A stretch of DNA of 64,000 nt from positions 224,001 to 288,000 of the forward strand of contig OZ241329.1 of NCBI GenBank assembly GCA_965199825.1. Reading direction: 5' to 3'. The notes beneath the pieces are model-generated. The model was not told the DNA's origin, searched no databases, and was given only the letters and a program-made list of their open reading frames with translations. The position numbers and the translations under genes were made by a program. This DNA is from Bdellovibrionales bacterium (lineage in GTDB: Bacteria; Bdellovibrionota; Bdellovibrionia; Bdellovibrionales; UBA1609). Below, piece by piece: positions 10,357 through 38,364 of the stretch. Position 1 is the first letter of the stretch. Every line of letters begins with the position of its first letter.

Positions 10357-10543
10357 ATAATCATATCGACACAATTGGCCAACTTCATAAGTCTTGGTTT
10401 GAGACGAATCTGCGAGACAAAGGTCTATTTAAGGCAGTTGGTAAACATCAGCGGCGCGAGTAACTTGCGCGGTTGGCCACTGAGCCTGATATCGATGTAG
10501 AGATTCAACTTCCACGCTTACATCTTTACTAACCACAACTGGA

Positions 10544-21753: not shown

Positions 21754-22206
21754 AGAGCGGCTTTAAAGCAATTCAAAGGCCAGTTAGTGAGTTGGGAAAT
21801 TTTAAGATGATTTCCTACAAATAGACGGAGTAGTTGATCAAATGGTTTTTGGAAATTTTGACTACAGGTCAGATTTCGATTCTTAAGGTAGTTTGAACCC
21901 CTACGGCATGGAGCAGTTTAACACAGTGCTATGATTGCAATGTGATGTGTCTGCTGTGACCACTCCGGCGAGAACATTCTTTTGGCATGTTGCGCAGACC
22001 TGATTCAAGTGCTGGTTCACACGTTGGCAAAATATTGAAGTCAGTGTGATGCGATTGATGAGTTTTCTTGAGTGACAGTGCTGTCAGGGTTGGTAAACTT
22101 GGTTAGAGTTTTCGTGCTCTTTTAGGTTTGAAGTCGAAACGAGTAAGAGGTTTTATTTTTTCACAAAATAATGACACTGCCCCGAATTTTTGTTTTCGTT
22201 TTCACT

Positions 22207-22858
22207 CGAAGTTATCGTGCCCGCCCGAAGTTATCGTGCCCGCCCGAAGTTATCGTGCCCGCCCGAAGTTATCGTGCCCGCCCGAAGTTATCGTGCCCGC
22301 CCGAAGTTATCGTGCCCGCTCGGCTACAAAATCACGTTTCCCAGTTTAACCAAAGAATTTCCAAAGGTGTTCAAAACTTTATTAAATAATTAGCTTCTGC
22401 TTCTCGTGTCCGCCAATTTTAAAATTAAACCAAAGACTAACACCGCCGGAAATTTTGTCGTGCCCACTGAAAGTTGTCGTGCCCACTGAAAGTTGTCGTG
22501 CCCACTGAAAGTTGTCGTGCCCACTCAAAGTTGTCGTGCTCACTCAAAGTTGTCGTGCTCACTCAAAGTTGTCGTGCTCACTCAAAGTTGTCGTGCTCAC
22601 TCAAAGTTGTCGTGCCCGCTCGGCTACAAAATCACGTTTCCCAGTTTAACCAACAAATTTCCAAAGGTGTTCAAAACTTTATTAAATAATTAGCTTCTGC
22701 TTCTCGTGTCCGCCAATTTTAAAATTAAACCAAAGACGAACACCGCCGGAAATTTTGTCGTGCCCGCTGACTTTGTCGTGCCCGCTGACTTTGTCGTGCC
22801 CGCTGACTTTGTCGTGCCCGCTGACTTTGTCGTGCCTACTCACTTTGTCGTGCCCACT
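22207..22858 (+). repeat. Three tandem-repeat arrays (6x19 bp, 9x19 bp, 6x18 bp; core RTCGTGCYCRCT) separated by two copies of an ~135 bp spacer
   Basis: Counted directly: CGAAGTTATCGTGCCCGCC x6 (22207-22320); GTCGTGCYCACT[G/C]AAAGTT x9 (22457-22620); GTCGTGCCCGCTGACTTT x6 (22757-22858). 22321-22456 is repeated at 22621-22756. Confidence 0.97.
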
Positions 22859-22999
22859 AAAAATTAAGAAACAAAACCACAATACTGCACTCAATTTTTT
22901 CTAGAAAAATGACATTGCCCCAACATTTATAAATCAAAAATATTTTTATCAAATTCAATTTTGATTGCATTTCTTTATACATAAATATAGTTTATAGAA

Positions 23000-23539
23000 A
23001 TGAAACAGCTTCCACTTTTTTCGCTTTCAAATCAGAAATCTTACGGCGGCAAAATGAAGGGGTGTCGAAAAATCATGCGACCACTCGACAAAAAACGATT
23101 ACACCATGTGATTCTAAAATCTCAGCATGCCAAAGGTGATCGAAGTTTTAAAAAATTCGACATGCAGATCAAATATAAAAATTTGATTTATTCAAAAGCT
23201 AAAAGATATGGCGTGCGAATTGCTGCATTCAGCAATGTGGGCAACCACTTTCACTTGCTCATCAGGTTTCAAGACCGCGCTCTTATCAAAACTTTTTTTA
23301 AAGTTGTTGCGGGTTTAATCGCTAGACTCGCAGCGGGCGCCCAAAAAGGTAAAAGGTTTGGTAGATTCTGGGATTCGGTGCTGTTCACTCGGATTGTGAG
23401 CCAAGGCCGTGATGAAGCTCGAATGTTTGATTATTTAGAAGCAAACTTAATTCAGGCCCACTTTGGAAAACAGGCTCGCAGTCATTTTGAATTTATCTGT
23501 AAAGAGTATTGGAAGGATCTTTCTAAAACCTCTCCTTAA
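23000..23539 (+). CDS. Y1 HUH transposase, IS200/REP-associated tyrosine transposase (RAYT)-like
   Basis: 179 aa; HHVILK, HUH motif GNHFHLL, RFW and putative catalytic Tyr in DYLEAN. Confidence 0.85.
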   Translation: MKQLPLFSLSNQKSYGGKMKGCRKIMRPLDKKRLHHVILKSQHAKGDRSFKKFDMQIKYKNLIYSKAKRYGVRIAAFSNVGNHFHLLIRFQDRALIKTFFKVVAGLIARLAAGAQKGKRFGRFWDSVLFTRIVSQGRDEARMFDYLEANLIQAHFGKQARSHFEFICKEYWKDLSKTSP

Positions 23540-23734
23540 GACCTCGATTCACTTCGCGATTGAGCATCATTTTTCTAAAATCACTTCTTAAGATCTCTTG
23601 TCATCCGCAATCAAGTCCGATCTTTCCAAAGCCCCGCGTGAGACTTTCAGTCACTTCAAAATCAATCATGATCTAACAAAATTGAGCACAAAGATTCGCT
23701 TTTTAAAGAGGTTAAACGATCACTCTTAAACGAC

Positions 23735-24271
23735 TTAATTCGAACCAGGCTTCTCGACTAAACTTTTAAGATTATTCAATCCCTTTTCAAACATGCCACC
23801 TACAAGCTTGTCCATGTTCATAAACAAACACATCAAGCGACTCATAAAATGATTTTCGCCGTGCACCTGCCACGTGACCACGGTTGAATCGCCTTTGGAT
23901 TCGAGAATGTATTCGGCATTTTGGGTCATGGTCATTGGCTTCGTGTAATCAAGCTTGATCCGAATATTTTTATTCGCAAGAGATTCAACAATGGTGGCGC
24001 TCCCCGTTCCGAGTTTTCCATCGCTCTCCCAAGAGGCTTTTGCGCCCACGCCTTCGTCAATTCCTGAGTAAACCATTTTTGCATGAGGGTCGACCTCGGG
24101 CCAAGGACTCCACTTTTCACTCATTGCCTGATTATTCAGATAAGGAAAGATTTTTTGGGCGGGGGCATGAATTTCGATTGAGCGTGAGATGAGATAATTT
24201 TTTGGCTTCAAAGCCGCACACAACAAAACGGTCAACACCAGTGCGGTTAAAACAAAAATTCCGTATTTCAT
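23735..24271 (-). CDS. SRPBCC / polyketide cyclase family protein
   Basis: RSIEIHAP..IFPYL..WSPW..DP, GVGA..W and DKLVGGMFEKGLNNLK motifs. Likely start MKYGIF at 24271. Confidence 0.85.
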   Translation of the reverse strand: MKYGIFVLTALVLTVLLCAALKPKNYLISRSIEIHAPAQKIFPYLNNQAMSEKWSPWPEVDPHAKMVYSGIDEGVGAKASWESDGKLGTGSATIVESLANKNIRIKLDYTKPMTMTQNAEYILESKGDSTVVTWQVHGENHFMSRLMCLFMNMDKLVGGMFEKGLNNLKSLVEKPGSN

Positions 24272-24278
24272 ATTTTCC

Positions 24279-25955
24279 TTATCCGAAAGTAAATGCGTAA
24301 ACCTCAGCCTCAGAATCTTCAAACTCAATTTCTAAAAGATGATTTTTGTTGACCTCATCTTTTTTAATTTTGATCAATTGATACAGTCGGTGCCCATCGA
24401 TCGCGCCATGACCCTCTTGATCAATATCAAGACCATGATCTTCTCCTGGAGCTTTGCCGTCCAAACGAATTTTAAAACCAATTTTTTTATTGCCACCCAA
24501 AACCAAGTGGACCGCTTCGGCATTAAATTCTAGGGCAAGTGAGGCGTGAGGTTTTTGAACCACCGCTCGCTCATTCTCAACCAACCACTCGCCATCGAGA
24601 GTCCATTCGTTAGGATTTAAAGTTTTGGCTCGTTGATATTTTTTGGTTTCGTTTTCGTTGATCTCATCGGCGGGCACAAAGTTTTTGGCTCGTGACCAGC
24701 CGATATAAGTTTCGGGCGTGCGCTTTAACGCCTTGGCTTGATCTTCAATTCCGATCGCCTCGATCTTTGCCAAATCTTGCGAGACCGATCCCTCTTCACT
24801 CAGTAATTTTCGAATCAGCTGCTCGGACTCTTCATAAGCGCCTTCGCCAAAATGATGATGGCGAACTTGTCCTTTGCGATCTATAAAATAATGGGCCGGC
24901 CAAGCCTGATTTTTAAATTCGTTCCAAACCAAAAACTCATTATCAAGTGCAACCGGATAAGTGATCTTTAAATCGGTCACCGCTTTTTGCACATTGCCCA
25001 AATCTTTTTCGAAACCGAATTCGGGAGTGTGAATCCCAATAATCACCAATCCATCTTTTTTATAAGTCTCATACCAAGCTTTTAAATACGGCAAGGTTCG
25101 TAAACAATTAATACATGAGTAGGTCCAAAAATCGATGATGACCACTTTACCTTTGAGCGAATCAGGAGTGAGGGCATCAGAATTGATCCAGTTTTTTGCA
25201 GCCGCAATCGAAGGCATTGGACCTTCGCTCACCGCTTTGGTCTCAAGCCCCGCATATTGAATCAGCTTTTGCTCGATTGATCCGGTTTCAAATTTCGACA
25301 ACTGGGTCAGTAAAGTGCGATCAAGATTAAACGCAATAATCACCACACCAAACAAAACCAAAACACCCAAAGTTTTTTTGACGATGCGGTCGTAGCCCAA
25401 AGATTTTTTCATCACCTTAAATGCCCGATTGCCCGCGAGCAGTGCGACTGACAAAGATGTGGCCGAGCCCAAGGAGTACGCAACCAAAAGTCCAATCGAC
25501 TTTGATAAGCTGTGTTGCGAAGCCGCACCGGTGAGGACCAAACCTAAGATCGGCCCCGCACAGGGCGCCCATAAAAGACCAGTTCCAACCCCGATGAGGA
25601 TTGAGCCTTTCACACTTGTGGAGTCGGCCTTTTGATTGATGTTCGAGCCGAACTGAGTGAGTGGTGCAATAAATGATTCAAGCGTGTGTGGAAATAACAG
25701 CGACAGCCCTAAAAGAGTCATCATCACCAAAGCCAGAATGCGCCCGTAATCATTGGCCCGCCCGATCCAATCTGCGCCTGCAATTGCAACCACCGAAAAA
25801 ACCGAAAAGGTCAGCATCATTCCAAACAGCAAGGGTAAACCCGTTTTATAGAATGAGCCTTGCGACTTAGAAAATACAAAAGGCAAAACAGGCAAAATAC
25901 ACGGGCTTAAGATGGTGAGCACGCCTGCAAGATAAGTTATGATAAATAAAATCAT
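24279..25955 (-). CDS. dipZ: DipZ-type CcdA(DsbD)-thioredoxin fusion
   Basis: LSPCILPVLP and WAPCAGPILG (CcdA); DFWTYSCINC thioredoxin motif; C-terminal RLYQLI...AFTFG. Confidence 0.92.
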   Translation of the reverse strand: MILFIITYLAGVLTILSPCILPVLPFVFSKSQGSFYKTGLPLLFGMMLTFSVFSVVAIAGADWIGRANDYGRILALVMMTLLGLSLLFPHTLESFIAPLTQFGSNINQKADSTSVKGSILIGVGTGLLWAPCAGPILGLVLTGAASQHSLSKSIGLLVAYSLGSATSLSVALLAGNRAFKVMKKSLGYDRIVKKTLGVLVLFGVVIIAFNLDRTLLTQLSKFETGSIEQKLIQYAGLETKAVSEGPMPSIAAAKNWINSDALTPDSLKGKVVIIDFWTYSCINCLRTLPYLKAWYETYKKDGLVIIGIHTPEFGFEKDLGNVQKAVTDLKITYPVALDNEFLVWNEFKNQAWPAHYFIDRKGQVRHHHFGEGAYEESEQLIRKLLSEEGSVSQDLAKIEAIGIEDQAKALKRTPETYIGWSRAKNFVPADEINENETKKYQRAKTLNPNEWTLDGEWLVENERAVVQKPHASLALEFNAEAVHLVLGGNKKIGFKIRLDGKAPGEDHGLDIDQEGHGAIDGHRLYQLIKIKKDEVNKNHLLEIEFEDSEAEVYAFTFG

Positions 25956-26443
25956 TATTTTTTATCAAAGAGTTTTTCAAACTCCTTGTATCCTTCTTTT
26001 TTTAAATCTTTTTTTGCCACAAATTTAAGTGCTGCAGAATTGATGCAGTAACGAAGGCCCGTAAGTTTTGGCCCATCCTTAAACACATGGCCTAAGTGAG
26101 AGGTTTGGCTGCGCACTTCGGTTCGCTCTGAGACCATACCGTGATCGGTTTTTTCGATGATGCTCGTCTTATTTATAGGTTTAGTAAAACTTGGCCAGCC
26201 TGTGTGTGAATCAAACTTGTCGGTCGAGCTAAATAAAGGCTCACCCGTCACGATGTCGACATAGATCCCAGGCTCTTCGTTATGGAAGTATTCGTTTTGG
26301 AACGGCCTCTCGGTGCCCTCTTTTTGGGTGACTTCGTATTGGATCGGGGTCATCTTTTTTTTAAGCTCTTCTTGGCTATAAGTCTTTTTTGGATTTTGCC
26401 AAGCAAGCGCAAACAACATGGAGGTCAAATAAATATGAAGCAT
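25955..26443 (-). CDS. msrB: Peptide methionine-R-sulfoxide reductase, probably exported
   Basis: [27 protein letters not shown] and RYCINSAAL motifs. Start at 26443 or 26419. Confidence 0.93.
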
Positions 26444-27070
26444 TTGTCTATTGTGCGCGAGAGAATTTTGATTGTGCAAGTCTTGCTTCTTTTTTTTATA
26501 CCTACCTTCGTTCAAGCTTTAGAGACCGCAACCTTTGCAGCCGGTTGTTTTTGGGGAAGCGAGGAGTTTTTTAAAAAAATTCCTGGTGTGGTTTCAACCC
26601 AAGTGGGCTACGCGGGGGGTAAGACCTCTCAGCCAAAATATTCTGAGGTTTCAAGCGGCACAACAGGCCATGCCGAATCGGTACAGGTCCAGTTTGATCC
26701 GAAAAAAGTAAGTTACGAGCAACTGCTCAACTCGTTTTTTAAAATGCATGACCCCACCACAAAAGATCAGCAAGGCAATGACCGCGGGAGCCAGTACCGC
26801 TCGGCCATCTTTTACCAAAACGACTCCCAGAAAAAAACCGCCGAAGAATTTATGAAGAGAGTCGACAAGTCTAAGGCTTGGAAAAAACCGGTGGTCACCG
26901 AAATCTCAAAAGCTGCTCAATTTTGGCCCGCCGAAGACTACCATCAAAATTATTTAACCAAAAATAAAGGGGGCTATGACAACCATTACTTAAGAGATAT
27001 TTCCTTTGGGATAACTCCGGCTGCGCCAGAGGATGGGAAGCCCAAGAGCAGTTTGAAACAGAGCCACTAG
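26435..27070 (+). CDS. msrA: Peptide methionine-S-sulfoxide reductase, probably exported
   Basis: [27 protein letters not shown] and AEDYHQNY motifs; GGAGG SD before ATG 26435; signal-like N-terminus. Confidence 0.95.
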
Positions 27071-28012
27071 ACTTAAAACCGCAAAGAAAACCATATTGAG
27101 CGGCGCAAATACAATTCCGAGTGGTGAAAAGTTACCGTGCTGCTTTTGTATGACAAATAAAGCGATCATCGCATAAACAAGAAATCCGTCTGGATTTAAA
27201 AACAAACGCACAATCAAAAAAACTTCGCAAAAAATAATTAGACTTGAGTACGGAAGTCCAAGTCTAAAAAGTCGAATCCAGCCATTCACAAATTCTTTAA
27301 GATTTAAAAACATCTGCACCTGGTAGAGTGTTGCAAAGGGGTAAAGGGCTATTTTTTTATTATTTTTTATAAATAAACGCCCAAGCTCAATATCATCCAC
27401 CAAATTGTGGGCAATCGCTTTGTGTCCTCCGACTTCGAGATAACTTGAGCGCTTCACCAAAATATACTGGCCAATCACAAACAATCGATCAAAGGTTGGC
27501 CGTTTTAAATAGGCGGTGGTGAGCAAAAGCATCAGATGAAAAAGCCCGCTCAGCTTTTCAAAACCGACCTCACAGCGATGATAGGGAGGCGCCGAAACCA
27601 AGTCGGCCTTTTGCTGATTCAAAAAACTAAGTGCCGTATTTAAAGAATGGGGCAAGTGCAAGGTGTCGGCATCGGTAAATAATAAAAATGGTGAATCCGA
27701 ATTTAAAAAACCTTGGTGACAGGCCCAATTTTTACCGGCCCACCCTTCTGGTTTTGGCCCAGCATCAACCACCTTTACAAAAGAAAATTGGGCGGCAACT
27801 TCTCGGGTGCGGTCGATTGAACTGTCATCAACCACAATAATTTCTTGATTAAAATTTTTTAAAGTTGGCAGCAAGCGCGCAATATTATTTTCTTCATTTC
27901 GACAGGGAATAATAATGCTGACCTTGGCATCAACAACCGCAAGTCCTTTTTCTTTTCGCCATGGCTTAAATCGCCACAAAAACAATGCTAGACCTACAAC
28001 AGATAACTTCAC
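26990..28012 (-). CDS. GT2 glycosyltransferase, carotenoid-associated (CrtQ/CruC-like)
   Basis: SIIIPCRNEE, VVDDSS.D, P.GWAGKNWAC and FTDAD motifs; last gene of the crt operon. Confidence 0.85.
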   Translation of the reverse strand: MKLSVVGLALFLWRFKPWRKEKGLAVVDAKVSIIIPCRNEENNIARLLPTLKNFNQEIIVVDDSSIDRTREVAAQFSFVKVVDAGPKPEGWAGKNWACHQGFLNSDSPFLLFTDADTLHLPHSLNTALSFLNQQKADLVSAPPYHRCEVGFEKLSGLFHLMLLLTTAYLKRPTFDRLFVIGQYILVKRSSYLEVGGHKAIAHNLVDDIELGRLFIKNNKKIALYPFATLYQVQMFLNLKEFVNGWIRLFRLGLPYSSLIIFCEVFLIVRLFLNPDGFLVYAMIALFVIQKQHGNFSPLGIVFAPLNMVFFAVLSLVALFQTALGLPILWRSRSYPKGNIS

Positions 28013-28812
28013 GAGTAGGCTTTCCGAATTCCTTTAAGCGCTAATCGCAGCTTGGGTAAAAATGGAATGGTCATGCGCATATCAAGAGCGGATGGCCCTT
28101 GGCGCAAAATTTTACGGCCAATCTCGGCGTAAATTTCGCTTGCGATACTCACCGCGACCGCGGCTCGAAAAGGCAAAAAGTGATATCCCCTTTGACCTTC
28201 GCGGTACAATTCCTCAGCCCGGTAAAGAAGTTTTTGGACCACAGGAAAAACCTTTTCGTTTTCAAGCGGTATGCGCTCTTCGCTCACACCCGCATCGCGA
28301 AGCCATTGGAGTGGCAAGTACACACGTCCTCGGGCATGATCCTCTGTCACATCACGAGCGATGTTTGTGAGCTGCATTGCAATACCTAAACTTTTTGCCG
28401 GCGCCATCGCTCGTTGATCTTTCACATTCATAATATGAGACATCATAAGGCCCACAGTTCCCGCGACCCGATAGGCATAAACTTCAAGATCTTCGAGCGA
28501 AAAAAATCTTTCGAATTTGGCATCTTGATCAAAACCAGAAATCATATCGAGCGCCAAAGTTTTTGGAATCTGATATTTGTGACAAAGCTGATCGAAGTCA
28601 TTAAAGATCGGTGTCGATCCTTTAAGTGTTTGATCCAAAATATCGGCCACGGCCTGAGCGGGATTCGCGGTGTGGTCAACCAAATCATCACAGTGCCTGC
28701 ACCATCGGTAAAGAATCCAACAGGCTTTTCGCATTCGCTTTGGAAAAAACAGGCTCGCAAGAAAAAAACTTTTCGATCCTTTAAATATGATCGAAATTAG
28801 AGAGTGCTTCAA
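28009..28812 (-). CDS. crtB: Phytoene synthase
   Basis: GSKSF, LY.WCR.CDDLVD, Y.VAGTVG and LGIAMQLTNIARDV.ED..RGRVYLP motifs. Confidence 0.93.
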   Translation of the reverse strand: MKHSLISIIFKGSKSFFLASLFFPKRMRKACWILYRWCRHCDDLVDHTANPAQAVADILDQTLKGSTPIFNDFDQLCHKYQIPKTLALDMISGFDQDAKFERFFSLEDLEVYAYRVAGTVGLMMSHIMNVKDQRAMAPAKSLGIAMQLTNIARDVTEDHARGRVYLPLQWLRDAGVSEERIPLENEKVFPVVQKLLYRAEELYREGQRGYHFLPFRAAVAVSIASEIYAEIGRKILRQGPSALDMRMTIPFLPKLRLALKGIRKAYS

Positions 28813-30290
28813 CTCAAGTCCTGTTGAACTAGCGCAGCGGTGGCTTTGGCCGATGAGATCACCCCCGGCACACCCGCACCGGGATGAGTTCCTGCACCCA
28901 CGAAATAAAGACCTTTTAAATGATCATCACGGTTGTGAGTTCTAAAAAAAGCACTCTGAGTTAAAATCGGCTCTAACGAAAAGGCCGAGCCCACATGGGC
29001 ATTCAATTCTGTCTTAAAATCCATAGGTGTAAATATTTTTTGAAACACGATCGACTCTTTTAATCCCGGCATATACTTTTGCTCTAAATAATTTAAAATC
29101 TTTTCGGCGTAGCGTGGTCCTTCAACTGCCCAATCCATTTCCATCAAACCCAGATGAGCCACCGGCGATAAAACATAAAATCCTTGATGCCCTTTAGGCG
29201 CAAGGCTCGGATCCGATTTGGTTGGCATATGGAGATATAAACTAAAGTCGTCGGGCAATACTCCATTCTTAAAAATATCTTTGAGCAATTCTTTATAACG
29301 TGGACCAAAAATAATATTGTGATGCTCAAGATTTGGAAAATCTTTGTTTGTTCCAAAATAAATCAAAAACAACGACATGCTTTGCCTCATATGATTGAGA
29401 CGATTGCCAGTGGAGGCCACCATTTTTTCATCTTTTAAAAGATGCTGATAGGTGTGCACCACATCGCCATTGCTGATGATGGTATCAAATTTTAAAACCT
29501 CACCCGACTTGACTTGCAGACCACCCACCTGACCCTCAACCGTAACAATCTTTTGGATTTCGCTATTGAGGTGAAGCACTCCTCCTAAATCTTTAAACAA
29601 ATTGACCAAGGCCCACACCAAGGCGCCCGTCCCACCGCGCGGAAAGTGCACTCCGCCTTTGCGTTCTAGATAATGAATCAATGTATAAATCGATGAGGTG
29701 TTAAATGGATTTCCACCAACAAGTAGACTATGAAAACTAAATGCCTCACGCAGTTTTTCATTCTTAATAAAATGGGCAACAGTTTGATACACACTGCGAT
29801 CGGCCCGGAGCTTCATCAACTGTGGCGCAGTTTGAATCATGCTCCACCAATTTAAAAAAGGTTTATGGGCAAGCTTGGTAAACCCCTCGTCGTAAACTTC
29901 TTTAGAGTAATCAAGAAATTTTATGTAACCCTCTTCATCACTGGGAGACATCTTGCGGATTTGCTTCAAGGTGGTTTCGAGACTGCCACTATAATTAAAA
30001 ACAGTACCGTCATCCCACATCAATTTATAAAAGGGATCGATTGGCATCATCTCGACATAGTCGCTCATCTTTCGACCACTGAGTTCAAAAAGCTCACTCA
30101 AAGTTTCAGGTGCGGTGATCACGGTGGGGCCGGCATCAAAGGTAAAACCTTTTTCGCGATACACATAAGCCCTGCCGCCGGGCTGATCGCGTTTTTCAAA
30201 AACGGTAACCTGATAGCCCGCACTTTGTAGACGGATCGCTGCTGCCAATCCACCAAAACCCGAACCAATTACCGCAATTTTTTTAGTCAT
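28809..30290 (-). CDS. crtI: Phytoene desaturase
   Basis: IGSGFGGLAAAIRLQ, FDAGPTVIT and GAGTHPGAGVPGV motifs. Confidence 0.96.
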   Translation of the reverse strand: MTKKIAVIGSGFGGLAAAIRLQSAGYQVTVFEKRDQPGGRAYVYREKGFTFDAGPTVITAPETLSELFELSGRKMSDYVEMMPIDPFYKLMWDDGTVFNYSGSLETTLKQIRKMSPSDEEGYIKFLDYSKEVYDEGFTKLAHKPFLNWWSMIQTAPQLMKLRADRSVYQTVAHFIKNEKLREAFSFHSLLVGGNPFNTSSIYTLIHYLERKGGVHFPRGGTGALVWALVNLFKDLGGVLHLNSEIQKIVTVEGQVGGLQVKSGEVLKFDTIISNGDVVHTYQHLLKDEKMVASTGNRLNHMRQSMSLFLIYFGTNKDFPNLEHHNIIFGPRYKELLKDIFKNGVLPDDFSLYLHMPTKSDPSLAPKGHQGFYVLSPVAHLGLMEMDWAVEGPRYAEKILNYLEQKYMPGLKESIVFQKIFTPMDFKTELNAHVGSAFSLEPILTQSAFFRTHNRDDHLKGLYFVGAGTHPGAGVPGVISSAKATAALVQQDLS

Positions 30291-31293
30291 AGTTACTCAT
30301 CAATATTTGTTTAAATTTTTTAAGCTGCTCAAATTCTTCAGTATTCAAAGTCAATTCATGTTTGAGATCTAAGATCGCTTGATCCAAAAAAATCTCGGCA
30401 CTTTGACGTGCTTGTTTTAAAACTCCGGTCTGATCCAAATAATCTTTGACCTCTAAAAACGTCAGAGGCAGCTCGGCACACAATTTTTTAAATTGCGAAA
30501 ACTGCTCGGACGTCATCAGTCGTGCCGCTTGCGCGATAATATATCCCAGCCGTTTGAGTTTGAGATCTTCGGCCTTTTTGGCCGGATTGTGGAGCGAGGT
30601 CACGTTCCCGATATCATCAAACATTTGAAGGGCCATTCCCAAGCGCGAGCCCAAATCCTCGATGCAATCGGCGACTTTGGCGTTAGCTCCCGCAACGATC
30701 GCTCCAGCTTTTAAAGCAAACCCCGCAAGTACACCCGACTTGAGTTCAATGGTTGCAAGCGAGGCTTCATAAATTCGCTCTTGTTCTAATTCACTACTCA
30801 TCACACCCACATCAAGAGCTTGACCAAAATGCGCCCTCAACAAAGTGCGATGACACTCGTGCATCAGGAGTGAGCGGCTTTGATCCGAAATTTTTAAATT
30901 ATTAATTTTTTGAAAGGGCAAAAAATAAAGCCAGTTGGCCGCATTCAAAGCAATCGGCACACCAAAAAGAGTATGGACTGTGGGTCCCCCCCTGCGATTG
31001 GTGCTGCCATCTTCAATATCATCGACAATCAATGATCCCGCATGAAGGAGCTCAATAATTTCGCTCACGCTATAAATTAAATCTTCAGAAATCGATTGCT
31101 CAGACCGGGCCGCTCCCACCTGAAAGCCTAAGAACACAAGATCAGATCTTAAACTTTTTGCGGGTCGTGAGGTGATAGTTTCGATGGGTGAAAATAAAGA
31201 GCGATCAAATAGATCCTCGAGCTCAGCCTGATGTCTGAGTCCCAAAAGATCTTTAAGTTCTTGCCCCTTAGGAAAAAAGTTTTGAAGCCTCAT
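30283..31293 (-). CDS. crtE: Polyprenyl (GGPP) synthase
   Basis: ELLHAGSLIVDDIED...RRG and QMFDD aspartate-rich motifs; first gene of the crt operon. Confidence 0.88.
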   Translation of the reverse strand: MRLQNFFPKGQELKDLLGLRHQAELEDLFDRSLFSPIETITSRPAKSLRSDLVFLGFQVGAARSEQSISEDLIYSVSEIIELLHAGSLIVDDIEDGSTNRRGGPTVHTLFGVPIALNAANWLYFLPFQKINNLKISDQSRSLLMHECHRTLLRAHFGQALDVGVMSSELEQERIYEASLATIELKSGVLAGFALKAGAIVAGANAKVADCIEDLGSRLGMALQMFDDIGNVTSLHNPAKKAEDLKLKRLGYIIAQAARLMTSEQFSQFKKLCAELPLTFLEVKDYLDQTGVLKQARQSAEIFLDQAILDLKHELTLNTEEFEQLKKFKQILMSNYD

Positions 31294-31375
31294 GAGTGCT
31301 TCAAACTCATCTTTAACGAATCGGGATCGGTCATACTTGCTTGTCTAACGGACCTTGAACACAGTCAAGAAATGC

Positions 31376-32512
31376 TCAACTGTCCGAGATATTAAAAAAC
31401 GAATTGTTGAGCAGCCTTAGGCAATTTGAAACACGCAAGGGCTCGCCGTGCTTTAAAACAGTATTAGACACCTTTGGCAGCTGTGCTCTTAAAGCTTGAA
31501 AGTCGCGATTGATCCAGTAATCGCGATCTTGGGCATAGCCCCACCATTTGATGCCATTAAAAAAATCATTCGTCTCTGTAACAGAAAAAATGGCGTTACG
31601 CGGATCCGTATGACTTTTGTAAAGCCGAATTGCCGACCACATCTCTTTTGTTTTGTTTAAATCAAAGTCCTGAAATTCGGTTAAGGTTATCAAGCGTTCA
31701 ATATGCCGCCACATCCGATCAAAATAAATCAGAGCCACAAAATGACTATGATACTCAAACCGACTTGTGATGTTGCCTTCTTTTTTTACCGAATTCAAAA
31801 TCGACATGGGCTCAAACCCGTGAGAGAAAAATTTTGATTTATGACCCAAGCTCGCAAATTTTTTAAGCTCAAATGAATCAATCAATGCGTAATACTTGTC
31901 ATCTTTATCAACCAAAAACCACGCGGGCGCAAAACCGGGCTGAGTTTTAGCCTGATCTGTAAATTGATTATTTTTATAAACAATTCTCATTTCTTGCAGA
32001 TCCCGCACTGTCAATAGCCGTTCGCCTGCCATGACGGTTGGAGGAGTTAGCGTATCTGGCTCAGCCGGTCGAATATAAATTGGATAAAATTTAACCAACA
32101 CATTGAGGGCTTGCCATAAGTTTTGAATTTGAACTCCATGAAGCCCGCTTAAAAGATTTTGCTTATTTGTGGCAAAATCAAGGATGCGCTCAGGGCCCTC
32201 AATCAAAACTTTCTTTTGTTTTTTAAAATCGTCTTCAATTGCAGCAACGTATTTTTCAAAATAAGTGCGTCCGTAGCTACTCACCTCATGAGCGAAAAGC
32301 TCATGACCGAATTTGCTTAAGAGCGCAGGATCCAACTTGTAAGTTTGATTAAAAATCTTTGAAGCTCCTCGATATTTCGGCTGTGGTGAAAGCAGCAAAT
32401 CCCATAAAACTTTGGTGGACATATCGAGCTGAGCTGACGCTTCGATGGGTTGAGGCATCGAAGCCGACGCAGAAATACAAAAAAAACTAAAAGCCAGAAA
32501 TAATTTGATCAT
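31376..32512 (-). CDS. Secreted hypothetical protein
   Basis: 378 aa ORF, signal peptide (ASA|SM), C-terminal NCLRLL. Confidence 0.75.
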   Translation of the reverse strand: MIKLFLAFSFFCISASASMPQPIEASAQLDMSTKVLWDLLLSPQPKYRGASKIFNQTYKLDPALLSKFGHELFAHEVSSYGRTYFEKYVAAIEDDFKKQKKVLIEGPERILDFATNKQNLLSGLHGVQIQNLWQALNVLVKFYPIYIRPAEPDTLTPPTVMAGERLLTVRDLQEMRIVYKNNQFTDQAKTQPGFAPAWFLVDKDDKYYALIDSFELKKFASLGHKSKFFSHGFEPMSILNSVKKEGNITSRFEYHSHFVALIYFDRMWRHIERLITLTEFQDFDLNKTKEMWSAIRLYKSHTDPRNAIFSVTETNDFFNGIKWWGYAQDRDYWINRDFQALRAQLPKVSNTVLKHGEPLRVSNCLRLLNNSFFNISDS

Positions 32513-32772
32513 GGGTTGAGCTTGTAACCAGACTTTTTTAATAATTCAACGATTAGTAAGCAATCGCTTGGCAGCTTTGAAAAGATGATTTGCGGTGGTG
32601 GTTCTCTGATAGCGTTTAACCCGCTGCTCGGTAGGCCTCGTGTGCGACTGACTTTTTGTGGATAGCTTCCTGGATTGGGAGGTTCGGCACAGGGAACAGC
32701 TCAGCGAATAGTTAATTTAACCAAGTGGTTCCAATTTCTTTTCGGTGTAATTAAATGACTATTTCCAAAACT

Positions 32773-33591
32773 TTAGTGAACGATGGTATGGCGGGCACGA
32801 TGGTGTCCCGCGCACAAGAGTGTGAGATTGGTGATGTCATGAGTGCCTCCCTCGGACCTCGGTTTTATATGATGAATATCCAAATGTCTTTTCTGCGGGC
32901 AACGCTCCCCCTTTTTGTTGATATACGTGCACTGACCTTGGCAGTTGTGATGAACTTGCCTTTTTTTAATTGGCGACAAAGTGTCGGAATTTTTAGGCGG
33001 GCACGATTTTATAAGCGGATCCAATTCCTTATGAAGGTGATCGACCGCGGTGCTGCAAACATCATAGTTAGTGGCGGGTCGTTTTAGTTTTTGGCTTAAA
33101 AGATCTTTGGTGCGCTCAAAGGTTTTAAATTCTTCTTCTGTCAGTGTATAAGAAATTTCGATTCTCACAGTGTCGCCAGCTTTACAGTATCGTGCCCGCT
33201 CAGGAATCGCTTTGTCGGGCTGAGCTTTAGCGATCTGTTTTTCTAAATTTCGCTTTGGGCCTTGGGCGATTGGAATCCAAACATCGCAATTTTCCTTAGT
33301 GATCACACTACAGACGCGATTGCCCTTAGAAACAGAAATCTCGCCCGATGCGATCTGAGCCTTAAGCTCAGGCACTTCAATAAATTTCTTGGCGAGTTTA
33401 TTGTAGATGCTTGCGAGCTCTTCAGAAAGTTTGAGCTGTTGGGTCGAGTATTCAAAAAGAGAGCTGCAGCCATATTGATAAAATGTTTTGTTGCGCCAAA
33501 TTTCTTCAAGAGCGCTCAGCAATTCCATTTCGGCTTTGCGATGGTTGGCGGCAGCAGTAATGGCGTTTGAATGTCTGCGAGCGTGATCCAT
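32773..33591 (-). CDS. HNH endonuclease with helical (DUF222-like) N-terminal region
   Basis: C-terminal C-x9-C...DIHHIKPRSEGGTHDITNLTLLCAGHH HNH motif; N-terminal GCSSLFEY...LKLSEE; AGGAG SD. Confidence 0.9.
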   Translation of the reverse strand: MDHARRHSNAITAAANHRKAEMELLSALEEIWRNKTFYQYGCSSLFEYSTQQLKLSEELASIYNKLAKKFIEVPELKAQIASGEISVSKGNRVCSVITKENCDVWIPIAQGPKRNLEKQIAKAQPDKAIPERARYCKAGDTVRIEISYTLTEEEFKTFERTKDLLSQKLKRPATNYDVCSTAVDHLHKELDPLIKSCPPKNSDTLSPIKKRQVHHNCQGQCTYINKKGERCPQKRHLDIHHIKPRSEGGTHDITNLTLLCAGHHRARHTIVH

Positions 33592-33823
33592 AAATATCTC
33601 CTATTTAGATAATGTAACACGAGTTTTCGAAAGGCTTTTTCATGTTGAGTACTGATGGCCATTAGTGCCGCTGTCGTGCATTCTTTTTTGGCTGAGAATC
33701 TTGTTGTAAGGAGCTTTTAATCTTAAAAAGACCATCACCATGGCTAATTGGCTTGATCGACATTTGAGTGGGCATAAAAAACCTGTCAAACAAATTTTAT
33801 TTTTTTCTTATTGTTTAGTTGAG

Positions 33824-34060
33824 GAGCGGGCACGACACCTTGAGCGGGCACGACACCTTGAGCGGGCACGACATTTTGAGCGGGCACGACCAACTTTGAG
33901 TGGGCACGACAACATTGAACGGGCACGACAACATTGAGCGGGCACGACACTTTGAGCGGGCACGACAACCTTGAGCGGGCACGACAACCTTAAGCGGGCA
34001 CGACAACCTTAAGCGGGCACGACACTTTGAGCGGCCACGACAACTCTAAGCGGGCACGAC
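33824..34060 (-). repeat. Tandem array of 13 copies of GTCGTGCCCGCT (minus strand), period 18-20 bp
   Basis: Plus strand reads (G/A)AGCGGGCACGAC plus a 5-7 nt linker. Copies start at 33824, 33842, 33860, 33878, 33898, 33917, 33936, 33954, 33973, 33992, 34011, 34029 and 34048. Confidence 0.97.
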
Positions 34061-34133
34061 CAACTCAAGAACAAAACTCAATCAAGCCAAACAACCTACC
34101 AGATAAAACCAAATATAAAGGCATAAAACATCG

Positions 34134-34961
34134 TTAGATAGGTGCAGGGTAAGAAGCCAGTATCCAGTCTTCCAATAAACCCGCACGCTCATACTGCAAA
34201 TATTTTTTGATTGTTTCTCGCATGCGCTGAGCTGGGCGATTCAAAAGGTGTAAGGTGCAATCATCAAGAAGAGCGTTATTTAAAATTTCAAGATTTAGGC
34301 TCATCCGAGTTTTAAAGATCCATTCCTGGGCGCTTAAGACCTCGACACCGTTTTTACCTAATCCCAGATACTGATCCTGATCCACCCGAATCAACCACTG
34401 CGATTTGTTTCTTAAAGGAGCTTGAATCAAAAATTGAAAAGCTTGAGGATGATTTATTTTAATCTGCGCAAAATCGATTTCAAAAAGTTCGGCCGCAAGA
34501 TGCGGCATAAGAAAAGCACCATCAAATAATTTTTGTTTAGGCTCATATATGCGGTTGTTGAGAATCATGGCCGCAACTTGAGCAAAAAAAGCTCCATCAA
34601 GAAGAACTTTTCCCTGCACCTTTTTGATATTTTTCAAATAAGACAATACGGGCCGACGAAAGTACAGCAACTGCACCCCACCAATTTTTTGAATTTCGGC
34701 ACTGCGATAGAAAAAAGCGTTGTGGTTATCTTCGCCATTCCACAATTCAAATTGAAATCCCAAGCTTTCAATCTTGCCTAAGGCGGTAGCTGGAAACATT
34801 TGCTCGGCCGATAAGTTAAAACCTAAGCACAGCAAAGCAAAGAGTGTCACCAGCTTCAAGTTTTTCAGATCGACCCCCTTCAACCGGGATCTCACCATTG
34901 TGTTTTGATTTTGCAAAGCTAAAAATGAATCAAACGCCGAATCGAACTCAACCTTTTGCAA
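34134..34961 (-). CDS. Hypothetical protein, probably secreted (true start may be ~30 codons downstream)
   Basis: 275 aa ORF with an internal signal-like stretch KLVTLFALLCLGFNLSA. Confidence 0.6.
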   Translation of the reverse strand: MQKVEFDSAFDSFLALQNQNTMVRSRLKGVDLKNLKLVTLFALLCLGFNLSAEQMFPATALGKIESLGFQFELWNGEDNHNAFFYRSAEIQKIGGVQLLYFRRPVLSYLKNIKKVQGKVLLDGAFFAQVAAMILNNRIYEPKQKLFDGAFLMPHLAAELFEIDFAQIKINHPQAFQFLIQAPLRNKSQWLIRVDQDQYLGLGKNGVEVLSAQEWIFKTRMSLNLEILNNALLDDCTLHLLNRPAQRMRETIKKYLQYERAGLLEDWILASYPAPI

Positions 34962-36351
34962 TCTCCCGCGCAGCTCTCAAACCCGACGCCGCAGCCGAAT
35001 TCATAAATCCTCCCGAATCAAGATCTGCGTGTTCACCCGCAAACAACAATCGACCATTCAATTCTGAAAGCGGCATCACATTTTGAAATCGTGTGACGTC
35101 CCCAATCCCATAGGCGAAGTAGGCCCCTTTACTCAGAGGTTGAGTTGCCCAATTCCAGGTGAGGGCATTGCCGTCAGGCTCAAGCCCAGAAAATATTTGT
35201 TTGTCGGCTCCCAAATACAGTGGCTGCTGCTCGGGTTTTAAAGCTAAGCCCGCCTTGCCGCCCACAAAATTTGTAAGCAAACCCGACTTCCCTTTTTGTG
35301 TCCTTCCGCTGTCGTAACAATTTTGGGATTGCAGATCACTGTAGACCATCCCATTTGATTTTTTGCCGCTCACCATCCACTCATGATTTTTGAAACCCAA
35401 AATCACTTTGCCTGAAGTGTTGTAGGTGCAATTTAATATACAATCTTTTTTGGTGGGTCTGAGATTGAGCTTTTTGATTCCCTCCACATATCTCAAGACC
35501 GAAAACGGCAACGTGCAAATCACCCGGTGAAAAGATTTTTGCTTTCCATTTTCAAACGAGAATTTGAGGTGAGTTGCGGTCTCTTCTATTTTGGAAACAT
35601 GATGATTCAAATAAATTGATTTTTTATTTAGAGCTTCACTGATTGCCTCAATTAATTTTGTTGAGCCGCCCCGAATACAATAGGCTTGGTCGCTCTCGCC
35701 ATAAATAGAAAATGGCTTTTCGGGATCGCTCCCAATACTTTGCAGCAGTGTCAGAGCTGACGCCTGATCGAGATCAATCCCCGCTTCGCTTGTCATTGCC
35801 ATAGCCAAAAATTGGATAAACCATTTTTCGGTCATTTCTGAAAATCCACTCAAGTATTTTTCTAACGGCAGACGATCAAACTTTTTTAAAATTGCCGGCT
35901 GATCCAAACTCAAAACATCTTTGCGAATTAATCCCGAAATCGATTTGTAAGCTTTTGCTGCATCTTGATCTGTGTAAGCCTGATGATTAAAAAAATAAAT
36001 ATTGGGCTCGAGCCCTTTTTGATGATCGGCGTATTTATCAAGTGGGATCTTAAAGTTCTCACACAGATGTCGAATTGCATGGTGATTGCTATCAACAAAT
36101 TCACCACCTAAGTCCACACACATTTTGTCGCTGTTGAAGTTGGGGACGGTCAAAATTCTTCCACCCAAGCGCGATGCCGCCTCATAGATCCCAACAGAAT
36201 AGCCTTTGCGGTGAAGCTCAAGTGCAGCGGTGAGACCCGCTATTCCTCCACCTAATATGGCGATGGGTTTTTGTGTAGCCGCTTCAAGATAGCGCAGCGA
36301 AATGGGAAGTAAGGCGGCCGATGTTAAAAATTGCCGACGGGTCAGTTTCAT
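34948..36351 (-). CDS. Tat-exported flavin monoamine/amino-acid oxidase
   Basis: TRRQFL twin-arginine signal; GGGIAGL, RLGGR, DLGGEF and FAGEH...GFMNSA motifs. Confidence 0.9.
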   Translation of the reverse strand: MKLTRRQFLTSAALLPISLRYLEAATQKPIAILGGGIAGLTAALELHRKGYSVGIYEAASRLGGRILTVPNFNSDKMCVDLGGEFVDSNHHAIRHLCENFKIPLDKYADHQKGLEPNIYFFNHQAYTDQDAAKAYKSISGLIRKDVLSLDQPAILKKFDRLPLEKYLSGFSEMTEKWFIQFLAMAMTSEAGIDLDQASALTLLQSIGSDPEKPFSIYGESDQAYCIRGGSTKLIEAISEALNKKSIYLNHHVSKIEETATHLKFSFENGKQKSFHRVICTLPFSVLRYVEGIKKLNLRPTKKDCILNCTYNTSGKVILGFKNHEWMVSGKKSNGMVYSDLQSQNCYDSGRTQKGKSGLLTNFVGGKAGLALKPEQQPLYLGADKQIFSGLEPDGNALTWNWATQPLSKGAYFAYGIGDVTRFQNVMPLSELNGRLLFAGEHADLDSGGFMNSAAASGLRAAREIAKG

Positions 36352-36388
36352 AACTTCAAAAGATACCAGCTCAATAAAAAAAGCTATT

Positions 36389-36946
36389 TTATTTTTTAGA
36401 CATCAATTGAGCCGCAAGCTGAATAAATTCTTCGGCATACTCTTCATCAAGACTGCCAATAATTTGGGTCGAAAGATTTAGAGCAATCGAGAGCACCCCA
36501 ACAAATTTACTTAAATCTTTGCGCCAACCTTGGATCTGCACCCCATCCTTGTGAAATTTGGCAAGCTCTTCGCGAAATTCTGAACTGACCAGGGCCTGGG
36601 TTAATATCACTCGCATCAATTTTTTATGCTTTTTAACAAAGTCGTAACGCGTACGAAGGTAGTGGGCCACTTCGTCGCCGATGTTTTCACCTTTATAGGC
36701 AAGGTGCTGTTGCGAGGTCTGCTCACGAAAGGAATTGAGCAAAGCAATTAACAATCCCATCTTGCCGCCAAAATATCTTTGGATCAGCGAGTCGTTCACA
36801 TCGGCCTTTAACGCAATTGCCCGAGTGGTTGCTCCCTCGTAGCCACATTTTGAGAAAATATCTAACGCGGCCTTTAACAAACGCTTTTCGCTATCTTCCT
36901 TGTCATATTTTTTACGGAGCTTCACATTTATCCCCTTTTGATTCAT
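36389..36946 (-). CDS. TetR-family transcriptional regulator
   Basis: LLKAALDIFSKCGYEGATTRAIA...LIQRYFGGK HTH; divergent from the efflux operon. Confidence 0.92.
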   Translation of the reverse strand: MNQKGINVKLRKKYDKEDSEKRLLKAALDIFSKCGYEGATTRAIALKADVNDSLIQRYFGGKMGLLIALLNSFREQTSQQHLAYKGENIGDEVAHYLRTRYDFVKKHKKLMRVILTQALVSSEFREELAKFHKDGVQIQGWRKDLSKFVGVLSIALNLSTQIIGSLDEEYAEEFIQLAAQLMSKK

Positions 36947-36979
36947 CTTGTATCATTATCGGTCCACATTCAAATTTTT

Positions 36980-37043
36980 GTAAGCAAGCGCTTGATTTTC
37001 GATCTTTTGACGCCGACAATAGATTGTAAGCAATTGATTACAA
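36980..37043. promoter_or_regulatory. Two palindromic candidate TetR operators
   Basis: AAGCAAGCGCTTGATT (36982-36997) and TTGTAAGCAATTGATTACAA (37024-37043) lie between the divergent tetR and tolC-like genes. Confidence 0.65.
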
Positions 37044-37056
37044 ACCGGAGTTGATC

Positions 37057-38364
37057 ATGAGCGCATCTTTGATACTCGCATTCTTTTTAAGCTTTGCTTT
37101 CGCCAATGAAAGCCAACCGTTTTTGACATTGGATGAAGCCTTACAAGAGTCGCTTCACCAATCTCCGGATATTCAAAAATTAGAGGCTCATCGTTCGGCC
37201 GTCGCATGGAAACATTTTGAAGCATTGGGCACCGGATTTTTGCCCAAACTCTCCCTCGATGCTCATCACTTTTTTGATGAGAAATATTCGTACACCACGA
37301 TCAATTTTGGCGGCAGCCCCACTCCATTTGCCGGATTTTACCCCGCCAACGAAGCCACTCTTAAAGCAAGCATTCCGATCTTTGATGGTTTTAGCAGTAT
37401 GAAAATGCTTAGTGCATCGGCGCTCGAAAAAGAAGCCGCAACCGCGCAGCTCGATTTTGCCCAGTTTCAATTGCGTCAAGAAGTGCGCCTCGCATTTTTT
37501 AGAGCACTTGCCGCAAGCGAACTTCAAAATGTGGCCCAACAAAACGTCACCACACTCGAAGATCATTTAAAACAAGTCGACAATCAAAAAAAGGGTGGCG
37601 TGGCCACAAGCTATGATCTTTTACGAGTGCAAGTGCAGCTGAGTGAAGCACGTGCCGATGCCATCGATGCCGAAGACAACGTGATTATCGCCCGAAAAAA
37701 ATTGACTCAATTGATGGGTCAAGAGGTGGATCAAAGAAATCTGATGGGTCAACTTCCGGTTCCCGAAACCCAAAAAGTAAAAGACTTGAAATGGGAAGCC
37801 ACGGTTAAAGATCGAAAAGATTTGCAAGCGATGAACTATCAAGCCCAAGCCGCAGCCAAAGAACATGATGCGGCAAGTACTTGGCTCGTCCCATCGATTT
37901 ATCTTGGTGGCCAGTATGGATTTTATGAATCACAAATTGTTGATAGCTCTGTCCACAACACTGGCAATTATAAAAATGCCTATAATGTTGGTGTTTACAT
38001 GCGATGGAATTTGTTTGATGGCGGCGTGAGTCTCGCAAAAGCCAAAGAGGCAGCCTTTCGTCAAGTCGAGTCCGAACGCGCTGTGCAATCAGCTCAGCTC
38101 CAAGTTCCCACCGATTTTGAATATTGGAAGCGCCGATTTTTGAGTAATTCTGATCATTACACTTCTAAAAAATTCGATATCGACCGATCAAAGGAGAGTG
38201 TTCGACTTGCAAAAGAAGAACAACGCGCCGGAACAAGAACCAGCACCGAGACTCTCGATGCTGAACTTGATTTGTTTCGTGCACGAGCGGGAGTGGTCAA
38301 TGCCCTCCTGAATTCAGCCGAAGCAAAAATACGACTCGAACAAGCCTTAGGAAGGGAAATATAA
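37057..38364 (+). CDS. TolC-family outer membrane efflux protein
   Basis: Signal peptide; LTLDEAL...SPDI, FLPKLSL, WNLFDGG and GTRT..E.LDAE motifs. Confidence 0.92.
   Translation: MSASLILAFFLSFAFANESQPFLTLDEALQESLHQSPDIQKLEAHRSAVAWKHFEALGTGFLPKLSLDAHHFFDEKYSYTTINFGGSPTPFAGFYPANEATLKASIPIFDGFSSMKMLSASALEKEAATAQLDFAQFQLRQEVRLAFFRALAASELQNVAQQNVTTLEDHLKQVDNQKKGGVATSYDLLRVQVQLSEARADAIDAEDNVIIARKKLTQLMGQEVDQRNLMGQLPVPETQKVKDLKWEATVKDRKDLQAMNYQAQAAAKEHDAASTWLVPSIYLGGQYGFYESQIVDSSVHNTGNYKNAYNVGVYMRWNLFDGGVSLAKAKEAAFRQVESERAVQSAQLQVPTDFEYWKRRFLSNSDHYTSKKFDIDRSKESVRLAKEEQRAGTRTSTETLDAELDLFRARAGVVNALLNSAEAKIRLEQALGREI

Follow-up and report, generated by a model that had tools for sequence, protein, structure and literature searches.

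Promoters in two halves are known from circle-forming insertion sequences (IS): in the IS3, IS30, IS256 and IS110 families the -35 and -10 elements lie at opposite ends of the element and are joined on circularisation. A 17-bp spacer is a basic rule of bacterial promoters, and in a normal σ70 promoter the distance from TTGAC to TG is 20 bp. Multicopy proteins with a helical domain and a C-terminal HNH domain are known as well, from the DUF222-HNH/REP13E12 proteins of Actinomycetota. Among systems with short-unit arrays, TIGR-Tas has two alternating repeats of 8-12 nucleotides (nt) with 9-nt spacers (PMC12045711, available part). Here we analysed a 64,000-nt stretch of DNA from a Bdellovibrionales bacterium (the window; C1:224001-288000, C1 being its contig and G000 its own genome, of 2.84 Mb), in which a gene for a 272-amino-acid (aa) HNH protein lies downstream of a tandem repeat array. 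The first-pass annotation did not recognise gene and array as a described system, and we found no description of the HNH element or of the module reported below in the literature covered, most subscription journals, ISfinder notes and supplements being outside that coverage. The first-pass annotation did not include the copies of the repeat core inside the gene (32791, 32997, 33190), the about 27 paralogues of the gene, and the most conserved cis feature of the locus, a split promoter with two boxes a long fixed distance apart. The real novelty is this split-promoter module, and the HNH element is one carrier of it.

Boxes, spacing and spread of the split promoter

The HNH locus has the following parts.

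32773..33591, minus strand: HNH nuclease gene, 272 aa (open reading frame (ORF) list; Pfam PF01844, E 2.9e-8)
32791..32800, minus strand: core copy inside the HNH gene, His-Arg-Ala codons close to the stop codon (codon fixation among paralogues)
32997..33006, minus strand: core copy inside the HNH gene, KSCP codons of the linker between the ribbon-helix-helix (RHH) and HNH domains (sequence)
33190..33199, plus strand: inverted core copy inside the HNH gene, ERAR codons of the linker between the helix-turn-helix (HTH) and RHH domains (R134 is CGA in 21/23)
33597..33602, minus strand: ribosome-binding site AGGAGA (sequence)
33611..33628, minus strand: split promoter, right box, A-tract + CTCG + TG-n-TACATT (extended -10; TG at 33619-33618); no -35 at the normal distance
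33629..33775, minus strand: split promoter, interior of fixed length, an excess of ~148-150 bp; sequence and RNA fold not conserved
33776..33815, minus strand: split promoter, left box, A/T-rich UP-like tract + TTGACA (33789-33784) + T-tract; no -10 at the normal distance
33824..34060, minus strand: tandem array, 13 copies of the core TCGTGCCC(G/A)C, unit 18-20 bp (Tandem Repeats Finder, TRF)

At this locus TTGAC and TG are 170 bp apart, and no canonical σ70 promoter was found upstream of the HNH gene (no pair of -35 and -10 hexamers with a 16-18 bp spacer). The general form of the module upstream of HNH genes is an A-tract, TTGACR and a T-tract, followed 166-171 bp further on by AAAAnnYR-TG-n-TAnnn and a ribosome-binding site. 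It was present at this distance in 84 of the 117 non-duplicate homologue loci with enough upstream DNA, and in 23 genome groups of Bdellovibrionota and Myxococcota. Matrices applied to the remaining loci found 4 more at the main distance and 3 at 186-187 bp; the others had no module. Homologues without it include L058, L059, L067, L075-L078, L080 and L081, and L080, judged by eye, has a normal TTGACA-14-TG promoter, possibly the ancestral state.

The pattern derived from the homologue loci was then tested on other loci. When matrices trained on the 59 loci from outside G000 were run on G000, they returned 25 box pairs at 166-171 bp against ~1 expected, and 24 of the 25 lay ~200 bp ahead of HNH starts. 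Non-autonomous copies of the module in G000 were considered and rejected, as the one unlinked pair equals the chance expectation. In 201 genomes of the phylum the DNA-only pattern matched 34 times and its reversed control not once; beyond G000 there were 22 matches, 13 ahead of HNH-family genes (hidden Markov model, HMM) and 9 ahead of Y1 genes (by eye, 2 of the 9 resting on first codons only).

We then compared distances in 109 family genomes. Matches (control in brackets) numbered 1 (3) at 19-21 bp, 2 (4) at 136-165 bp, 38 (0) at 166-173 bp and 87 (4) at 174-203 bp. In the last of these bins all but one of the matches listed were at 185-189 bp, and 73 were in a single genome, G008. There are two narrow spacing classes, a main one at 166-173 bp and a long one at 185-189 bp, and the bins at 19-21 and 136-165 bp are at chance level. 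The fixed spacing can be summed up as 166-172 bp, about 16 helical turns, with the second class at 185-188 bp. Nineteen of 22 further main-spacing loci matched the HNH profile (7 of the 19 were already in the discovery set), and 11 of 12 long-class loci lay ahead of HNH (5), Y1 (4, one called on a gene stretch of 8 codons), IS66-like (1, by eye) or ISNCY (1, NF033593) genes. A Myxococcota version of the pattern gave 24 matches against 0 in the control; of the 20 loci fetched, 18 were ahead of HNH-family genes, and in the remaining 2 the downstream DNA amounted to <300 nt. Finally, a metagenome scan returned at least 120 loci, and among the matches listed there were 13 HNH and 7 Y1 genes (HMM) and 27 IS66-like genes, all called by eye except L172, which Pfam and NCBIfam confirmed and whose relatives include Desulfobacter and Desulfobulbus entries. 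Because kin are not independent, these counts show that the module is real and how far it has spread, not that it had independent origins.

Two perfect modules from the metagenome scan stand apart: that of L259 is ahead of a putative transposase-like ORF of another family, and that of L180 is ahead of no clear ORF. In G008, an ISNCY-family element (L304, L317-L326) has the 185-bp module and a left box that occurs 59 times, and a second, IS66-like element has a spacing of 188 bp, which makes this genome a good natural test case.

Only the two boxes and their distance are universal parts of the module. The boxes fit σ70 elements in the style of the host, for example TGCTAGAA in Myxococcota and TGnTATnnT in IS66 copies, where the module begins 30-45 bp inside the left terminal repeat. 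The right box reads RTG-n-TAnnnT with AAACC at about -22 to -18 and resembles the AACCT Z-element (PMC3173786, available part), and it lies just ahead of the ribosome-binding site; its T at position -7 was present in 28 of 29 loci of the IS66 set (a set that includes two other loci). With assumed twist values, the TTGAC-to-TG distance is 15.9-16.0 helical turns (standard deviation 0.1) in three enzyme classes. The consensus boxes, their two exact long distances, the four unrelated enzyme families downstream and the sequence-free interior point to an unrecognised mechanism whichever of the explanations below is right (looped promoter, protein ruler or DNA switch). In these phyla the split promoter may also mark mobile elements from the DNA sequence alone. 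It offers a way into a very large, uncharacterised HNH family that has candidate natural pairs of protein and site.

Possible ways of reading the two boxes

How could two boxes this far apart be used? We propose that they may form one σ70 promoter that works only when the ~150-bp interior is looped out, which would make expression conditional; we give this a probability of roughly 0.4. The boxes would be read by σ70 RNA polymerase, and a loop of 14 turns (about 16 in the long class) would align them, helped by supercoiling or by a DNA-bending host protein, so that looping would make expression of a harmful enzyme depend on DNA topology or on the bending protein. One polymerase across a 14-turn loop is favoured because nothing in the module besides the boxes and their distance is universal.

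The interior is conserved in length and not in sequence. Interiors of IS66 elements were no more alike to those of HNH or Y1 elements than shuffles, and in genome G161, where HNH and Y1 modules both have the 167-bp spacing, the interiors are 53-55% alike. The AT/GC content has a weak periodicity of 10-11.5 bp. An intrinsic curvature was rejected, with none above shuffles (z -0.2 to +0.3, assumed wedge angles). A structured noncoding RNA in the 170-bp region was rejected as well: there was no covariation and no consistent fold, and 11 of 12 alignments were without a conserved RNA fold, the twelfth having a weak one of -2 kcal/mol.

Frpo and the phage minus-strand origin are single-strand promoters, and by analogy the two boxes might be folded together while the element is single-stranded during transfer or replication. 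The carriers are mobile elements and include Y1 enzymes, which act on single-stranded DNA (PMC6006769, available part). However, arm complementarity in the interior did not exceed that expected from base composition, with a mean folding z of -0.5 (42 of 84 loci), and single-stranded DNA needs no length fixed within 3 bp, which makes this a very improbable explanation.

Also improbable, if less so, is a DNA switch, in which the interior of ~148-150 bp (or 165-168 bp) would be excised between the T-tract and the A-tract to leave a normal 17-bp promoter in a short-lived subpopulation or on the excised circle. When the two tracts are joined the distance from TTGACR to TG is a canonical 14 bp, and the boxes share a pseudo-inverted core, that is, they form a pseudo-inverted repeat. 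The closed form was rejected as a real class, as its 1 match against 3 in the control in the 109 genomes is chance, and G008 has none despite its 73 long-class copies. Moreover, nine ISNCY left ends of G008 were read through the interior, and 7 were intact, 2 switched to other sequence and 0 were deleted. The joint is missing from the contigs of sequencing run X1, which drop rare variants; many Myxococcota copies have no T-tract, and no recombinase is linked to the module.

The main rival, possible but doubtful, holds that the boxes are two separate sites set apart by a ruler. The right box would be a self-sufficient promoter of the extended -10/Z type and the left box a decoy, a roadblock or a loading site for RNA polymerase or another host factor, with the distance set by a protein spool or by an unstructured transcript of fixed length. 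A Z-element can replace -35 contacts (PMC3173786, available part) and the right box is like -35-independent promoters; in HNH loci a weak TAnnnT follows TTGACR after 15 bp, and the core common to both boxes fits this explanation too, as do two discrete spacings ~19 bp apart. On the other hand, the left box is a consensus -35 with an UP-like tract and is helically in phase with the right box, and the transcript would be one with no conserved fold in the 11 alignments and a weak one in the twelfth. A histone spool, prompted by the coincidence of 147 and 167 bp, was rejected: PF00808 was found in only 2 of 5 carrier genomes, weakly, and the available part of PMC11789641 held nothing relevant to it.

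Several observations count against a single looped promoter. The spacings do not form a ladder of 10.5-bp steps, which a free loop would permit and whose lack also suits the two-site explanation; the long class, at 17.6 turns (assumed twist values), is slightly off phase, and the interior has no intrinsic bend beyond shuffles. An extended -10 plus a Z-like element could work alone. The T at -7 is weaker in HNH loci (51/110) and rare in Y1 loci. Among the metagenome matches listed (at least 120), 73 were not assigned to these enzyme families, nor were any of the 18 viral pattern matches; most resemble chance matches in AT-rich DNA. In addition, the module is missing from about a quarter of the homologue loci, from all G000 Y1 genes and from 6 of 6 plasmid relatives of ISNCY and IS66 (rhizobia, Microvirga, Acaryochloris, Bacillus), and it is dispensable because it is missing in these three settings.

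The HNH element and its repeats

The window locus is one of about 27 dispersed copies of a likely selfish HNH nuclease element. A tblastn search of G000 gave 27 long HNH copies plus a fragment, at identities of 48-70%; the intact set used below comprises the 24 ORFs over 250 aa, three broken ones being left out. In 8 of 11 relative loci deoC directly adjoins deoA, and in G000 the paralogue at C1:904299 lies between them; the element is therefore likely selfish. Homology among close paralogues starts at the last repeat, mostly 5-35 nt ahead of TTGAC, and ends near the stop codon, with ragged ends. Therefore the array is largely outside the mobile unit, its last copy abutting the left end of the element; the core copy at 32791..32800 marks the putative right end. 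One divergent HNH pair in G000 (C1 805042 and 799110) has no split promoter and a short left end of ~140 bp. An IS4-like assignment of L233 was dropped, since this locus starts with the N-terminus of the HNH family.

The structure model of the HNH protein had a pLDDT of 87.8 and a pTM of 0.47. Residues ~16-125 matched the DNA-binding domains of KorB, ParB and Spo0J (Z 6-7; KorB, Z 7.0, root-mean-square deviation (rmsd) 3.3, 96 aligned), residues ~144-197 matched RHH proteins (Z about 5; TraM RHH, Z 5.1, rmsd 2.2, 49 aligned) and residues ~200-272 matched the HNH domains of IscB, GVE2 HNH and McrA (Z about 7; IscB HNH, Z 7.2, rmsd 2.5, 59 aligned). The predicted architecture is a ParB/KorB-like HTH, an RHH and an HNH with Cys/His zinc ligands; all 19 sequences compared share the catalytic and zinc-binding His, Asn and Cys. 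A Foldseek search had no match at E up to 0.001, and the fold comparison listed ParB, RHH and HNH with no Nop or DUF222-like fold among those listed, a listing that leaves room for other folds. The family is large, with 1,384 clusters at 50% identity (E up to 1e-30), and occurs in 40 of the 109 family genomes, often in many copies; no relative was found in a plasmid collection. The ENA protein P0015 is an apparent mosaic of the N-terminus of C1:475593 and the C-terminus of C1:2566095 and looks like a gene conversion or an assembly chimera.

The array upstream of the window gene is as the first-pass annotation described it, with 13 co-oriented repeats of 18-20 bp ending 233 bp from the intact gene (TRF on 33824-34060: period 19, 12.7 copies, score 325). 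The degenerate copy and the imperfect palindrome noted there are likewise present (TTGAGTGGGCA at 33764 and ACTGATGGCCATTAGT at 33651), both within the split-promoter interior. In G000 the 10-mer core occurs 415 times in 100 clusters, and the 8-mer TCGTGCCC has 522 occurrences in C1, 231 of them near an HNH start. The 8-mer lies at most 700 nt upstream of the HNH gene in 27 of 27 paralogue loci and is on the coding strand in every one of the 26 loci listed, in 1 to 26 copies, compared to 2.3% of random windows.

Core copies inside the paralogous genes are in frame, at both domain linkers and in the last helix; in another HNH clade an inverted copy at codon 202 replaces that of the RHH-HNH linker. 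The codons that spell the core are nearly fixed in the intact paralogues (R265 is CGT in 24/24 and A266 GCC in 23/24; R134 is CGA in 21/23), while elsewhere in the gene the median share of the top codon is 0.5, and therefore the core is selected as DNA. Of the proposal that these are selfish or defence loci tied to a motif, the selfish part is borne out by the 8-mer at all 27 paralogues and the codon-fixed copies in the gene; the defence part is not supported. PADLOC gave only short matches over the HNH-containing part (3 proteins) and no full-length match to a defence protein.

The tandem array is not supported as a defining part of the locus. G000 has 15 arrays of at least 5 copies, of which only 5 are within ~1 kb of an HNH start, 2 are at the window Y1 gene and 8 stand alone (C1 484400, 751483, 809104, 953715, 1355531, 1538411, 1576080 and 1618395; 9-34 copies, periods 16-20 bp). 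The latter have housekeeping or unknown genes as neighbours and lie at a long distance from all HNH and Y1 genes; they may be what lost elements left behind, or sites that were amplified in trans. Single cores within coding regions, probably Val-Gly-Thr codons, were left out of these counts. The expected arrays upstream of HNH homologues were also missing: no array of the G000 core was found at homologue loci beyond G000 (83 loci, 51 read by eye). Many homologue loci have 10-20-bp palindromes upstream and in the gene linker (e.g. GTCCCACGTGGGAC, GTCCCGGGAC), of several kinds that differ by protein clade even inside one genome, and in some other lineages none were seen. Simple tandem repeats of 6-9 bp lie between promoter and start codon or beside the element in many homologue loci (L011, L026, L033, L055, L068, L069, L079, L368). 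Two palindromes at C1 964355-964933, of parS type by consensus, are distinct from the HNH-linked motif.

The array probably serves as a binding site on the DNA and not as a guide RNA. That the array might be transcribed into short RNAs guiding the HNH nuclease, as in CRISPR or TIGR-Tas, was among the roles first considered; the array does adjoin the HNH gene and the encoded HNH domain is similar to the one in IscB, but we regard a guide as hardly credible. Cut at the core, the 13 copies leave intervals of 8-10 nt, and the linkers are not unique because four interval sequences each occur twice (CACCTTGA, CAACATTGA, CACTTTGA, CAACCTTAA); across loci the units are 16-42 bp long with locus-specific, locally duplicated linkers. 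The array folded worse than shuffles (z +2.35) and no Rfam match was found in the window. Most long arrays are far from HNH genes, homologues lack them, and the array is largely outside the mobile unit.

Instead, the ParB-like domain would bind the short repeat, much as ParB binds parS. Nicks made beside this site, and their repair, would multiply it into tandem arrays on the spot and aid the spread of the element; we favour such sites over a guide RNA and over repeats written by Y1 enzymes. Evidence on the latter comes from the same window, where the HNH-linked core also precedes a Y1 gene in the same relative orientation, as had been noted.

23000..23539, plus strand: Y1 HUH transposase-like gene, 179 aa (PF01797; no split promoter)
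22172..22921, plus strand: composite repeat region upstream of the Y1 gene (TRF, motif search)

The region holds three arrays of the core (22207-22319, 22455-22621, 22754-22855), two Y1-type motifs TGACAnTGCCCC (22172, 22910) and two CACCnCCGGA motifs (22441, 22741). At the latter positions lies a third motif, AACACCnCCGGA(G/A)TTT, whose core has 55 copies in C1 and which is common to HNH-type and Y1-type repeat regions, sometimes as inverted pairs. The Y1 family's own upstream repeat, AAATGACA(T/C/G)TGCCCC, has 46 copies in C1, spaced 50-170 bp (the window and 13 other close Y1 loci). The window Y1 gene is one of 14 close copies in the genome; its protein has an N-terminal QLPLF motif, similar to a clamp-binding motif, and fell short of the RAYT-family profiles (NF047646, 19.4 bits against a cut-off of 80; NF033573, 19.1 against 55).

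Could Y1 HUH enzymes write the repeats as REP-like (repetitive extragenic palindrome) sites and move the HNH gene in trans, as TnpA of IS200/IS605 moves TnpB and IscB? The core ahead of the window Y1 gene, the third motif shared by both array types and the module common to HNH and Y1 genes in G161 speak for it. Yet the other close Y1 paralogues of G000, among the matches listed, have a different motif, AAATGACATTGCCCC; the G000 core is not palindromic but a direct-repeat half-site, and different HNH clades of one genome have different palindromes. We therefore consider it rather unlikely.

Taken together, we tentatively propose a new promoter class in which σ70 RNA polymerase would bridge a loop of 14 or 16 turns. 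The unrelated HNH, Y1-HUH, IS66 and ISNCY elements would use it to make their enzymes respond to DNA topology, in Bdellovibrionota and Myxococcota and probably also in Desulfobacterota. Among the carriers would be a transposase-less element in which the ParB-like domain would bind a site specific to its clade and nicking by the HNH domain would spread both site and gene. To be set against the points on this carrier are the fold matches, which are all below Z 8, for which reason the architecture is a prediction, and the first recognition helix of the HTH, which is acidic in G000. Linkage alone would make motif and protein clade agree. Inspection of the element ends by eye, made without an identical paralogue pair or an exact empty site, showed no transposase, terminal inverted repeat or target duplication.

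The element is located inside a carotenoid-type cluster (window 26990-36946: glycosyltransferase, phytoene synthase, two desaturase-like oxidoreductases, polyprenyl synthetase, TetR), and is flanked by two single-copy genes of no family (31376-32512 and 34134-34961). Two giant ORFs at 1603-16927 (2923 and 2127 aa), likely fibre-type genes, contain single cores. Logan contigs of run X1, possibly the source sample, are identical to the window at 22807-33853 and 33995-38000 (0 differences); the PolyA run X6 and the small-share runs X3 and X4 gave only scraps of match, and among the runs listed none of RNA contained the stretch.

Comparison with known systems

As first reported, the array is not CRISPR: its intervals of 8-10 nt recur, unlike unique spacers, and no cas genes were present among 24 nearby proteins scanned (carotenoid, transport and unknown genes). 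It is not a hairpin REP either, with 0 copies of GTGCCCGGGCAC or TGCCCGGGCA in C1 and the poor fold given above. Like REP/REPIN-RAYT (PMC6006769, available part), it is a short genome-wide repeat that clusters at a single-gene element and is amplified locally, but the G000 core forms no hairpin, is tied mainly to the HNH gene and is selected inside it. Tandem direct repeats at Y1 genes are not mentioned in the available part of this source, with 0 occurrences of the terms. With TIGR-Tas (PMC12045711, available part) the locus shares a short-unit array beside an HNH-bearing protein; it differs in having one repeat, recurring linkers, units of 16-42 bp and arrays not conserved in homologues. No Nop family was found in Pfam for 19 proteins.

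IscB and TnpB of IS200/IS605 (OMEGA) are comparable in that the HNH gene is multicopy and Y1 genes of the same hosts share the left-end module. However, no RuvC was detected and predicted ParB-like and RHH domains are present instead; the IscB profile NF040563 scored 31.5 bits against a cut-off of 175, over the HNH part only, and the 190 nt upstream of the HNH gene had no omegaRNA or other Rfam match and no conserved fold or covariation. The DUF222-HNH/REP13E12 proteins are similar in being multicopy with a helical domain and a C-terminal HNH; membership was rejected, as PF02720 had 0 matches in G000 at E 0.1 and none in the 19 proteins. In a similar-looking Atlas cluster, 14% of members have this domain. 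ParB-parS, Noc-NBS and KorB-operator pairs resemble the element in the predicted HTH fold and in the palindromes at homologue loci, whereas here there is no CTPase domain, the fold is fused to RHH and HNH, and the sites are found within the gene of the element itself and around it.

For the module, extended -10/Z-element promoters (PMC3173786, available part) have a counterpart in the RTG-n-TAnnnT and AAACC of the right box, but here an orphan consensus -35 with an UP-like tract is kept 148-152 or 165-168 bp too far upstream. In how it would work, the module is most like the two-part promoters of circle-forming IS elements: in both, a σ70 promoter comes in two halves and expression of a mobile-element enzyme would be conditional, while in the split promoter both halves lie within the left end, at a fixed ~169 or ~187 bp.

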